Origin: a virus
Lineage: Duplodnaviria; Heunggongvirae; Uroviricota; Caudoviricetes
Strand: one strand, 5' to 3'
Length of the DNA stretch: 10,033 nt
Virus record (IMG/VR): IMGVR_UViG_2660238061_000002
Shown here: one piece after another, positions 6,877 to 10,033 of the stretch
How the letters are laid out: each line of letters opens with the position of its first letter
How positions within the stretch are numbered: position 1 is the stretch's first letter
The notes under the pieces: model-generated
Told to the model about the DNA's origin: nothing
Seen by the model: only the letters and a program-made list of their open reading frames with translations
Database searches by the model: none
Position numbers and translations under genes: made by a program

Positions 6877-8265
6877 GCGGATATCCAGATTCGCTGCGGT
6901 GGTGTGAACGCCGGTCAGCCTGCCGGTGGTGCTGTAGCTGTAACTCCGGGTCTGGCGCGGGCTGCTGATGCGGATGAGTTCGCCGTTGTCGTTCCAGGTG
7001 TAATCGCGGTCATACTGCAGGCTGTTCAGGTGCTGACGCTGTAACTGCCCGGCAGGGGTGTAAGCGGTGGTGAGTTCATAACGACCGAAGCTGCGCAGCG
7101 TTTCCCGGTGCAGGCGGTCGCGGGTGAAATCCACCAGCGGTGTGTCGCCGAGCTTCATGCCTGCCAGCCAGCCGCTGCCGTAGGTCAGCCATTCCACGGC
7201 GGGCAGGCTGTCCGGTATACAGCGGTTCGCCAGTCCCTGTGCGTTGTACGCATGTCTGGTCTCATGCTGCCAGAGCAGTTCATTCGTCTGCGGATGATGC
7301 ACCGTCAGGTGTTCACTGGCGAGGCGGCCTTTACTGTCATAACCATAGTGCACCGCCACCCGGTGCCCTTCGCTGATATGGCTGATGTCTGTCAGCCAGC
7401 CGCGTTCGTCATACTGCCACTGCTCTGCGGTTTCACCCTTCACGGTGCGGTGAGTGAGGCGGTCTGCTTCGTCATAGTACCAGTGGGTGACCAGCCCCTC
7501 ATCCTCGCTGCGGATAAGTTTGCCGGTCAGGTCGTGGTGATAACGCTGTGTGCGGCCGTCAAAGCCGGTTTCCTGTATCAGCCGGTCGAGTACATCGTAA
7601 CGGAAGGTGGTGTGGCTGCCGTTTTCACTGGTCAGGCGGATGACCCGTCCGGCAGCATCGTATTCCATACTGCGCGTCAGCCCGCCCTGCGTGGTACAGA
7701 TGGCCTTTCCCCACGCATCGTACTGTGTCCCGTTTCTGCTGCCGTCCGGGGCAATGACGGTGGTCAGGTCACCGGCGGCGTTGTATTCATACCGCGTTTC
7801 ATGGCCCTGCGTGTCTTTCACGGCAATTAACTGTCCACGGCTGTCGTATGCGCGGTACTGGCTCAGCCCTTCCTCGCGGTGCACCGCCGTCACCTGACCA
7901 AAACGGTCATGGTCATAACGGGTTACATAACCGGAACAGTCGGTGAAGCTCAGCAACTGGCCGTAACGGCTCCACGTCATGGTTTTCCGGCTGCCGGTGG
8001 CATCGTCCGTTGCGCAGGGGAGGTCACTGTGTGGATTATCATAACGGTAGCGGGTGATATCGCCGTCAGGGGCGGTTTCCTGAATCAGACGGCCGGATTC
8101 ATCATATTCCCGGCGCAATTCCAGCCCGTCAGGCCCGGTGGCTGACGTTAACTGGTTGTGGTGGTTATAGTAAAACGCCGATGCCCTGCCATCCGGCGTG
8201 GTTATGCGCGTGATGAGGCCCGTCACCACATCCGGGCTGTACTCTGTTGTCCTGCCTGCGGCATC
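6877..8265 (-). CDS. Rhs-family protein, internal YD-repeat region (463 codons, no stops), open at both ends
   Basis: Repeated xxGxxxRYxYDxxGRL-type units (e.g. DAAGRTTEYSPD, RYDHDRFGQVTAV, RYEYNAAGDLTTV, TFRYDVLDRLIQETGFDGR); neither the N-terminal domain nor the C-terminal toxin tip is present. Confidence 0.85.
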
Positions 8266-8276
8266 NNNNNNNNNNG

Positions 8277-8872
8277 CACTGTAAAGAGAAGTGGCTGCGT
8301 ACCCTGTGTGAAGTTGATTTCACGCCACCGGTAAATGGGGAAACGCTTGAAACTCATGCCCCGGCATTCTGGCGCTGGCTGGACAGGGCAGCCGGGCGCA
8401 AGCCAGCAAAACGCGACATTATTCTCGCAGCGCTGTTTATGGTGCTGGCGAACCGCTATGACTGGCAGCTCTTTCTGGAAGTGACTGGCCCTGGCGGAAG
8501 TGGCAAAAGTATCCTTGCTGAAATTGCAACGATGCTTGCAGGAGAGGATAACGCCACCTCAGCGACAATTGAAACTCTGGAGTCCCCGCGAGAACGTGCG
8601 GCTCTGATCGGTTTTTCTCTTATTCGCCTGCCTGATCAGGAGAAATGGAGCGGCGATGGCGCCGGGCTTAAGGCTATAACCGGTGGCGATGCAGTATCTG
8701 TGGACCCCAAATATCAGAATGCTTATTCAACACATATTCCGGCGGTTATCCTGGCCGTAAATAATAATCCTATGCGCTTCACTGATCGCAGTGGTGGTGT
8801 GTCTCGCCGGAGAGTTATTCTGCATTTTCCTGAGCAGATAGCACCGGAAGAACGCGATCCGCAGCTAAAAGA
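8277..8872 (+). CDS. Phage/plasmid primase-helicase fragment, P4-alpha-like C-terminal (SF3 helicase-type) domain with Walker A GPGGSGKS at about 8487-8510
   Basis: Open frame across the block; P-loop motif plus sequence context recalled from P4-family primase C-terminal domains; open at both ends. Confidence 0.55.
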
Positions 8873-8882
8873 NNNNNNNNNN

Positions 8883-9395
8883 CGATTCGGTCGGGTTAAA
8901 CTGCACGCCAGCTCCCCACGCCAGAGACGTGTTGCTGTGGCGACCGTCATCACTTCCGGTCAGCACATCGTGCGTTTTCCCCTTGTTGTCAGTTACGCGG
9001 AGATAATCCCCGGAGAAAGTCGACACACGGCTGTAAGCCACACCCGCCATCGCATACGCGCTGAACCATTCATTCACGCGTACAGACGGCCCCGCCATCA
9101 CGCTGAACCAGCGGTTACGTAAGGAATCTTCATGCCAGCGGGTATCGCTGTAACGGGTCAGCTGGCGATTCTTGTCTCCTGCATAGCTGAATGACGTCAC
9201 CAGCCCTAGTGTGTCCGTAAACTCATAACGGTATTTCACGTTAATCCCGTTCAGATCATCGCTGCCGGGAACGTTCGTCGAGGCATGAAGATAGCCCGCG
9301 CTCAGCGTGGACTGATGTTCAGACGCCCATGCAGGCGCACCGGATACGGCCAGACAGATGGCTGCGGACAAAATGGCGGCATAAAGTTTACGCAT
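8883..9395 (-). CDS. lom: Second Lom-family outer membrane protein (paralog of 6051-6625), 3' end cut off by N run
   Basis: ATG at 9393-9395 (minus); MRKLYAAILSAAICLAVSGAPAWASEHQS…; about 95 percent identical to the first lom copy. Confidence 0.85.
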
Positions 9396-9418
9396 AATTA
9401 CCTCTCGCTTTTCTGCAA

Positions 9419-9444
9419 TAAAAAAGGCGCCAGAAATGGCGCCC
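9419..9444 (-). terminator. Rho-independent terminator between the second J C-terminus and second lom (minus strand: ggcgcca-tttc-tggcgcc then tttttt)
   Basis: Hairpin plus T-run read from the sequence; paralogous to the terminator at 6003-6027. Confidence 0.55.
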
Positions 9445-9463
9445 GCATATGGGTTATGAAAAT

Positions 9464-10014
9464 TCAGCTAATCGTGATACCTGCTGTGGATTTCTTCATC
9501 ACCACAACCAGCAAATCGCTGATACTGGCTGTGGGATACCAGTCATTTACCAGCCACGCTGATACCGAAAACTCCAGCGTCATGTGACCGCGACCAGCAG
9601 GCATATCAATAACACCTGTATAAACCAGCGTATTATCCAGCGCGGTACGGTTATAAATTTCAGCACCGTTTTTCTTCACTATCAGGCGGCATGACGAATA
9701 AATATCGTTATTCTCCCGCTCATGTTTAGCGCCACGAAACGCCACCGCGGGAATAACAATCTGCCGGTCAAACGGCTGATCGTCATAAACCCTGACGGTA
9801 ATGGTCCCTGATGGCCACCGCTCCGGTGCACGGGAGTCCCGGGGGAAAGCTTTGCCCACTGTTTTAACGAGATCGCCTTCAATCTGGTTCGCGGACAGTT
9901 TTCCCAGAACCCGACAGTTCTCGTTAATCGTGACATTGTTGAGCGTCCCGGCGTTCGCATTCACACTGCCACTGATATCCGCATTTTTAGCGGTCAGCTT
10001 TCCGTCCGGTGTCA
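9464..10014 (-). CDS. J: Lambda-like protein J, C-terminal receptor-binding region, variant 2 (…[69 protein letters not shown]…[22 protein letters not shown])
   Basis: Stop at 9464-9466 (minus); conserved flanks with a divergent central segment compared with variant 1. Confidence 0.85.
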
Positions 10015-10033
10015 NNNNNNNNNNCTGACACAT

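Follow-up and report, generated by a model that had tools for sequence, protein, structure and literature searches.

About 40% of E. coli genomes contain P4-like satellites, elements known to carry anti-phage systems. [quoted passage not shown] The alpha protein of P4 has been reported to carry two adjacent arginines at the arginine-finger position, and the homologous residue R690 of the pRN1 protein ORF904 is required for ATP hydrolysis (PMC2777425). The combination of D5_N with an SF3 P-loop core, and the order of the motifs, are common to alpha, to the solved primase-helicase 7OLA/7OM0 and to the SF3 types of pRN1 ORF904 and poxvirus D5. ORF904 also has in common with alpha its organisation into primase, SF3 helicase and winged helix, but its primase is of the prim/pol type, whereas that of alpha is a DnaG-like Toprim.

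The window analysed here is a stretch of 10,033 bases made up of 17 pieces of 9 to 1,825 bp each, joined by runs of 10 N. The piece under study (8276..8872; 597 bp, 53% GC) lies between two of these gaps, and it is almost certainly an internal fragment of an alpha gene (codons 431-628 out of 777) from a P4-like phage satellite in an E. coli-type genome. Both the gene and the element are already known, the element being abundant and well described in E. coli. The features of the piece and its edges are as follows:

8266..8275, no strand: 10-N assembly gap, left edge of the alpha piece
8276..8872, plus strand: orphan contig with an internal part of a P4-type alpha (primase-helicase) gene, lacking both start and stop codon
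8277..8387, plus strand: tail of D5_N (alpha 431-467), linker before the helicase core, placed by its offset from the full-length relative of identical amino acid sequence
8484..8810, plus strand: P-loop core of the SF3 helicase, Pfam DUF5906, fragment aa 70-178
8487..8510, plus strand: Walker A GPGGSGKS, alpha 501-508 (fragment aa 71-78, with lysine 507), identical in P4 alpha
8619..8642, plus strand: Walker B-like strand LIRLPDQE, alpha 545-552, identical in P4 alpha
8670..8717, plus strand: segment from Walker B to motif C
8745..8771, plus strand: motif C / sensor-1 strand VILAVNNNP, alpha 587-595, identical in P4 alpha
8802..8816, plus strand: SRRRV, alpha 606-610, at the position of the neighbouring-arginine 'arginine finger', identical in P4 alpha
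8873..8882, no strand: 10-N assembly gap, right edge of the alpha piece

The codons at 8277..8870 on the plus strand correspond to alpha residues 431-628 and form an open frame of 198 codons, the five other frames having between 3 and 14 stops. An earlier note on this DNA had pointed to a Walker A motif in an open frame and had likened its context to the C-terminal SF3 domain of P4 alpha-type primases. [quoted passage not shown] Of the profiles that had been proposed there for checking the assignment, DUF5906 and TIGR01613 match the fragment itself, and D5_N matches its full-length relative. The Pfam DUF5906 match to the translated fragment reaches 41.3 bits, over a gathering score of 27.6 (E=2.7e-10), and the NCBIfam profile TIGR01613 ('phage/plasmid primase, P4 family') matches with E=2.2e-19 and 69.4 bits over 179 of its 304 positions. 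The curated cut-off of this profile is 108.7 bits, which is exactly the score of P4 alpha, while the full-length S21 relative scores 102.4; since the cut-off sits at P4 alpha's own score, the shortfalls of the fragment and of the full-length relative probably do not amount to an exclusion. In addition, DNA-primase families of the PHROG collection match the fragment at E=4e-60 and 1.7e-53.

Over residues 431-628 of P4 alpha the alignment with the fragment needs no gap, and 179 of the 198 amino acids are identical (90.4%); identity of the DNA is only 77.7%. The 133 nucleotide differences from P4 amount to 97 synonymous and 19 non-synonymous codon changes, and the allele of E. coli S21 differs from the fragment by two synonymous and no non-synonymous changes. 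This excess of synonymous changes, both with respect to P4 and to the closest E. coli allele, indicates purifying selection on the lineage. Among 5,426 complete E. coli genomes searched with megablast, the best DNA matches, all of them 99.7% identical, were found in strains S21, H14 and PO06101, and the fragment was matched in 669 genomes, 686 of the 687 places being chromosomal. At blastn sensitivity a related core was detected in 2,051 genomes (38%), with up to six places per genome, which is in line with the published prevalence of P4-like satellites. As 62% of the genomes lack a match even at this sensitivity, the fragment represents accessory sequence.

The full-length relative encoded in S21 (WP_073508568.1; 777 aa, gene of 2,334 nt) is identical in amino acid sequence to the fragment over residues 431-628. 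Its domains are Zn_Ribbon_Prim (31-67), Toprim_3 (210-300), D5_N (336-467), DUF5906 (500-608) and Pox_D5 (670-769), and its C-terminus matches 1KA8, the solved origin-binding domain of P4 alpha (E=1.7e-48). The primase part and the winged-helix origin-binding domain lie N-terminal and C-terminal to the fragment, respectively, both outside the piece. P4 gp-alpha (NP_042036.1; NC_001609, 4636-6969) has the same length, 777 aa, and the same domain set; the two proteins are collinear and 73% identical over 99% of their length, and P4 alpha is the top match of the S21 protein in the phage collection, so that the best match is not an unrelated chromosomal helicase, which is what would have spoken against the earlier proposal. 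Identity between both proteins varies along their length: it reaches 92% in the SF3 core, is 78% for the C-terminal domain and 77% for D5_N, and falls to 57-60% over the primase half. The window piece is the most conserved part of the alpha gene.

At the level of sequence, Walker B, motif C and the arginine finger are present in SF3 order. From SF3 topology we infer that LIRLPDQE is the Walker B strand, and the segment at 8670..8717 would occupy the place of the pre-sensor-1 beta-hairpin, which in SF3 helicases touches DNA in the pore (PMC2777425). Residues 509-637 of 7OLA align to the fragment, the GxxGKG/S and RR motifs included, in what is a distant match (E=1.4e-4). By analogy with P4 and with SF3 helicases in general, which are the basis here for the hexameric state, the polarity and the replicative role (PMC8628076, PMC2777425), alpha would be the single-polypeptide replication initiator of the satellite, in which a Zn-ribbon and Toprim primase are combined with an SF3 hexameric helicase and a winged helix. 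The winged-helix domain would bind the iterons at ori and crr, and the protein would assemble as a ring helicase, with each ATP site probably formed by Walker A (K507), Walker B and motif C of one subunit along with the arginine finger of the neighbouring one. ATP hydrolysis is expected to drive translocation in the 3'-5' direction, leading to unwinding of the origin, and alpha would then prime synthesis with its own Toprim primase. Replication of the satellite would in this manner be independent of host initiators, and could take place in the plasmid state or once a P2-like helper phage has induced the satellite. The share of alpha encoded in the window is the nucleotide-binding core of this motor only.

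Seven relatives in which the fragment DNA is 95.6-99.7% identical were inspected together with their surroundings. All seven are P4-like satellites with a full-length alpha gene (2334 nt) as the last gene, and all of them have psu, sid and ogr/delta along with the P4 gene order. In the six relatives besides S21 the other core components are present by annotation, with psu truncated in two and delta interrupted in one. The sites and the defence cargo found in these elements are the following:

S21, H14 and PO06101: beside ssrA; SIR2-HerA (PADLOC)
700462: tRNA-Thr beside proA; Drt8 and PD-(D/E)xK (PADLOC)
PCP06022: the locus of 700462, upstream of the pao genes; Hachiman, HamA/HamB (PADLOC)
2014EL-1345-2: tRNA-Thr beside proA; ATP-dependent nuclease and UvrD helicase (Gabija-like by annotation only)
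LR-45: beside an annotated tRNA-Ser; Drt3a/b (by annotation)

The stretch retrieved for PCP06022 starts in an Avs2 gene, and the flank on the integrase side lies beyond it. In LR-45 the 112-nt 'tRNA-Ser' beside the satellite integrase (L009 2762..2873) was not recognised as a tRNA by ARAGORN, and the tRNA-Ser site therefore rests on the annotation of the record. The proposal that this gene marks P4-like satellites is borne out by the seven close relatives, which reside in such elements, next to tRNA or tmRNA genes and with defence cargo beside the integrase.

In most of the relatives a conserved hypothetical protein of 270 aa is encoded between ogr/delta and the variable defence cargo (L001 9034..9846; L003 8424..9236; L004 6463..7275; L009 8034..8846), being absent from the element of 2014EL-1345-2; it has no match in Pfam or PADLOC.

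The psu gene is truncated in 700462 and PCP06022, and an IS100 lies inside ogr/delta in the latter (L003 9530..9694; L004 7295..9693). With two truncated psu genes among the seven relatives and an insertion in delta in one of them, the alpha allele is no guarantee of a functional satellite. The coexistence of an intact alpha gene and defence cargo with a damaged hijacking module suggests that some of these elements persist as immobile defence islands.

In E. coli S21, alpha closes a 12-kb satellite located beside ssrA, whose genes are, in order, integrase, SIR2, HerA-type ATPase, 270-aa hypothetical protein, ogr/delta, psu, sid, alpA-type HTH, Ash/epsilon, a 74-aa ORF, DUF5375 (cnr family) and alpha. 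All seven P4 core components (Int, Psu, Ogr/Delta, Sid, AlpA, Ash/epsilon and alpha) were identified in this element with Pfam. The nearest relatives have in common with the catalogued P4-like satellites (PMC8628076, PMC9122126) the psu/delta swap, the cnr-like gene and the ORF of about 75 aa between epsilon and alpha, as well as the terminal alpha and the variable int-psu defence hotspot, and nothing substantive differs; this likeness is read from the relatives, the window itself holding the alpha core alone. The S21 element is bracketed by a 23-nt direct repeat with copies 11,975 bp apart, which lies about 110 bp beyond ssrA and is the sole flanking repeat. A duplication of the ssrA 3' end of at least 12 nt that could serve as att core was not found in S21, and because the end of ssrA itself is not duplicated the 23-nt repeat is regarded as a tentative att.

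The exact iteron of P4, TGTTCACC, has 11 copies in P4 and none inside the S21 element. A k-mer scan of the 30.6-kb S21 locus detected four copies of an overlapping octamer, CTGTTCAC, against 0.72 expected, a count that none of 100 shuffles reached. The copies are confined to the intergenic region between sid and alpA or lie just downstream of alpha (L001 11610..11701, 16107..16177), which are the positions equivalent to ori and crr of P4. It is possible that origin specificity has shifted in the S21-type alpha lineage with respect to P4, and if so satellites could co-reside without replicon interference. Downstream of the S21 alpha gene there is far less repeat structure than in P4, with its two 120-bp crr repeats.

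Other origins for the fragment were considered. A decayed satellite remnant that can no longer be mobilised, or a truncated alpha pseudogene, would account for an isolated 597-bp contig in a window with no other satellite sequence, and decay does occur among the close relatives, as seen in the psu genes of 700462 and PCP06022 and in the delta of the latter; one further genome, PS2Canimalfeces3, has only a partial match of 49%, abutting a prophage tail-fibre gene. Against this, the frame is intact over its 198 codons and differs only by synonymous changes from the intact gene of S21, 666 of the 670 matching records span at least 80% of the fragment, and alpha is full length in the seven relatives, including the two with damaged psu or delta. 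A remnant is in our opinion unlikely, and we favour a fragment of the alpha gene of a P4-like satellite.

It is highly improbable that the fragment derives from a PICI, a phage-plasmid, an integrative island with a DUF5906/D5-type primase or some other element that is not a P4-like satellite but has a primase of the P4 family. The C-terminal domains of P4-family primases are widespread, with 1100 phage records matching the full-length protein, and E. coli genomes do hold other genes annotated as 'DNA primase family' or 'DUF5906', but these classes are only around 65% identical in DNA or 25-53% in protein, while in the seven inspected relatives, at no less than 95% nucleotide identity, the gene is the last one among P4 core genes; of the 687 places matched in the E. 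coli genomes, all but one are chromosomal. A PICI-type gene set around the primase was found in none of the seven, which have psu, sid and ogr/delta instead. As for a fortuitous Walker A, or a chromosomal housekeeping helicase with no relation to the P4 primases, the pattern GxxxxGK[ST] is by itself very common, but E-values down to 4e-60, the 90% identity to P4 alpha, the lack of any housekeeping annotation and the absence of the sequence from 62% of E. coli genomes at blastn sensitivity leave this origin with practically no probability, and we consider it refuted by the profile, PHROG and P4 alpha matches.

A fragment of alpha from a P4-like satellite flags at least one such satellite in the source genome and brings nothing new in biological terms. 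What is of use here is corrective, and concerns the tRNA-Lys repeat, which is a feature of a housekeeping operon and not an att site, and the window, which consists of repeat-derived orphan contigs.

A tRNA-Lys att-like repeat in the window had been tentatively related to the satellite in the earlier note. This link does not stand, because the piece in question (2473..2666) belongs to the core lysT operon and is present in 5426 out of 5426 genomes, with a median of five places per genome. It is collinear, base for base, with the core lysT-valT-lysW... tRNA operon that adjoins nadA. The 18-mer TGGTGGGTCGTGCAGGAT has nine copies within 1.5 kb of this operon (L005 447..1544): each of the six tRNA-Lys genes ends with one at its 3' side, and three spacer/RtT-like repeats begin with one. 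A naive reader can mistake it for an att duplication; an origin by insertion of an element was rejected, this being a housekeeping repeat found in every genome. Insertion at tRNA-Lys was seen in none of the seven relatives, and no complete tRNA was detected in the window with ARAGORN.

The remaining pieces bear on how the alpha fragment came to be where it is. When the 16 pieces of at least 30 bp were compared with the 30.6-kb S21 locus by blastn, no satellite match appeared in any piece other than alpha. Of the 16 other pieces, 14 could be identified and all 14 belong to multi-copy families, the exceptions being 1868..2149, without a Pfam match, and 10025..10033, which with its 9 bp is too short; five of the smaller pieces were placed in lambdoid phage genes by reading their translations alone. 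The families represented are the 3' flank of gadA, two alleles of lambda gpG, the Big_2 domain of gpV, fragments of gpJ, two alleles of the gpJ C-terminus with lom, RHS repeats, IS1 and the tRNA-Lys array. The window resembles the last contigs of a short-read assembly, broken at repeats and later concatenated. The ends of the fragment are assembly breaks, not biological boundaries, and its adjacency to the RHS piece on one side (6877..8265) and to the lom/gpJ piece on the other (8883..10014) is artificial. The window strings together orphan contigs derived from repeats, and neighbour relations within it are therefore not to be interpreted.

As to why this part of alpha became an orphan contig, the most plausible cause would be that the source genome has at least two closely related alpha genes and that the short-read graph was broken there. 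This reading is drawn from the related core being present in up to six places per genome (among the 2051 of 5426 genomes with the core), from the origin of every other identified piece (14 of 16) in a multi-copy family and from the satellite matching no other piece of the window. When six alpha alleles were aligned and inspected by eye, no recombination or mosaic step was seen at the fragment ends (nt 1290 and 1886), and identity over the fragment is 95-99.7% within this group of alleles. No database allele has a breakpoint at these ends, and the multi-copy cause is to be taken as plausible. A more elaborate scenario, which we regard as quite improbable, is that the source genome may hold at least two co-resident P4-like satellites sharing the alpha allele, which would account for the orphan contig, at least one of them perhaps with an undescribed int-psu defence system, together with a shift of the origin relative to P4 (CTGTTCAC for TGTTCACC).

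Several observations were made on the other pieces. The first one (1..504), AT-rich with 37% GC, contains the 3' end of gadA and its downstream flank, and ends inside the gadA/gadB paralogous region, which is found in two places per genome in 5,426 out of 5,426 genomes. The adjacent pieces 1312..1652 and 1663..1857 are two alleles of the gene for gpG, the lambda tail assembly chaperone, that are nearly identical and yet distinct, which is consistent with several lambdoid prophages and repeat-driven contig breaks. Likewise, 5375..6625 and 8883..10014 are diverged alleles, in opposite orientation, of one lambdoid module in which the C-terminal receptor-binding domain of gpJ is followed by lom; two diverged alleles of this module imply that the source genome has at least two lambdoid prophages.

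The piece at 6877..8265 encodes, on the minus strand, 451 codons of RHS repeats with seven RHS_repeat matches (E=1.8e-58), and corresponds to an internal portion of an Rhs core, the toxin tip not being within the window. The piece at 1868..2149 contains an open frame of 93 codons with a high content of G, T, N and D (…NNEGESAITNGGTGTQINGDDATANNNGKTTVDGKDSTG…); it has no Pfam match at E<=0.001 and looks like an adhesin or an autotransporter passenger repeat. Finally, within the piece 3230..5054 there is a 1.5-kb unit (3490..4995) encoding a CPBP/Rce1-like intramembrane protease and a GyrI-like protein, with inverted left ends of IS1 on both flanks, their insA-proximal ends facing the unit. The whole unit was found in none of the 5,426 complete E. 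coli genomes, and the GyrI half alone in three of them. It is 100% identical to two Salmonella enterica plasmids of about 100 kb (CP048302 and CP048300), and looks like a rare IS1-bounded segment carried on plasmids.
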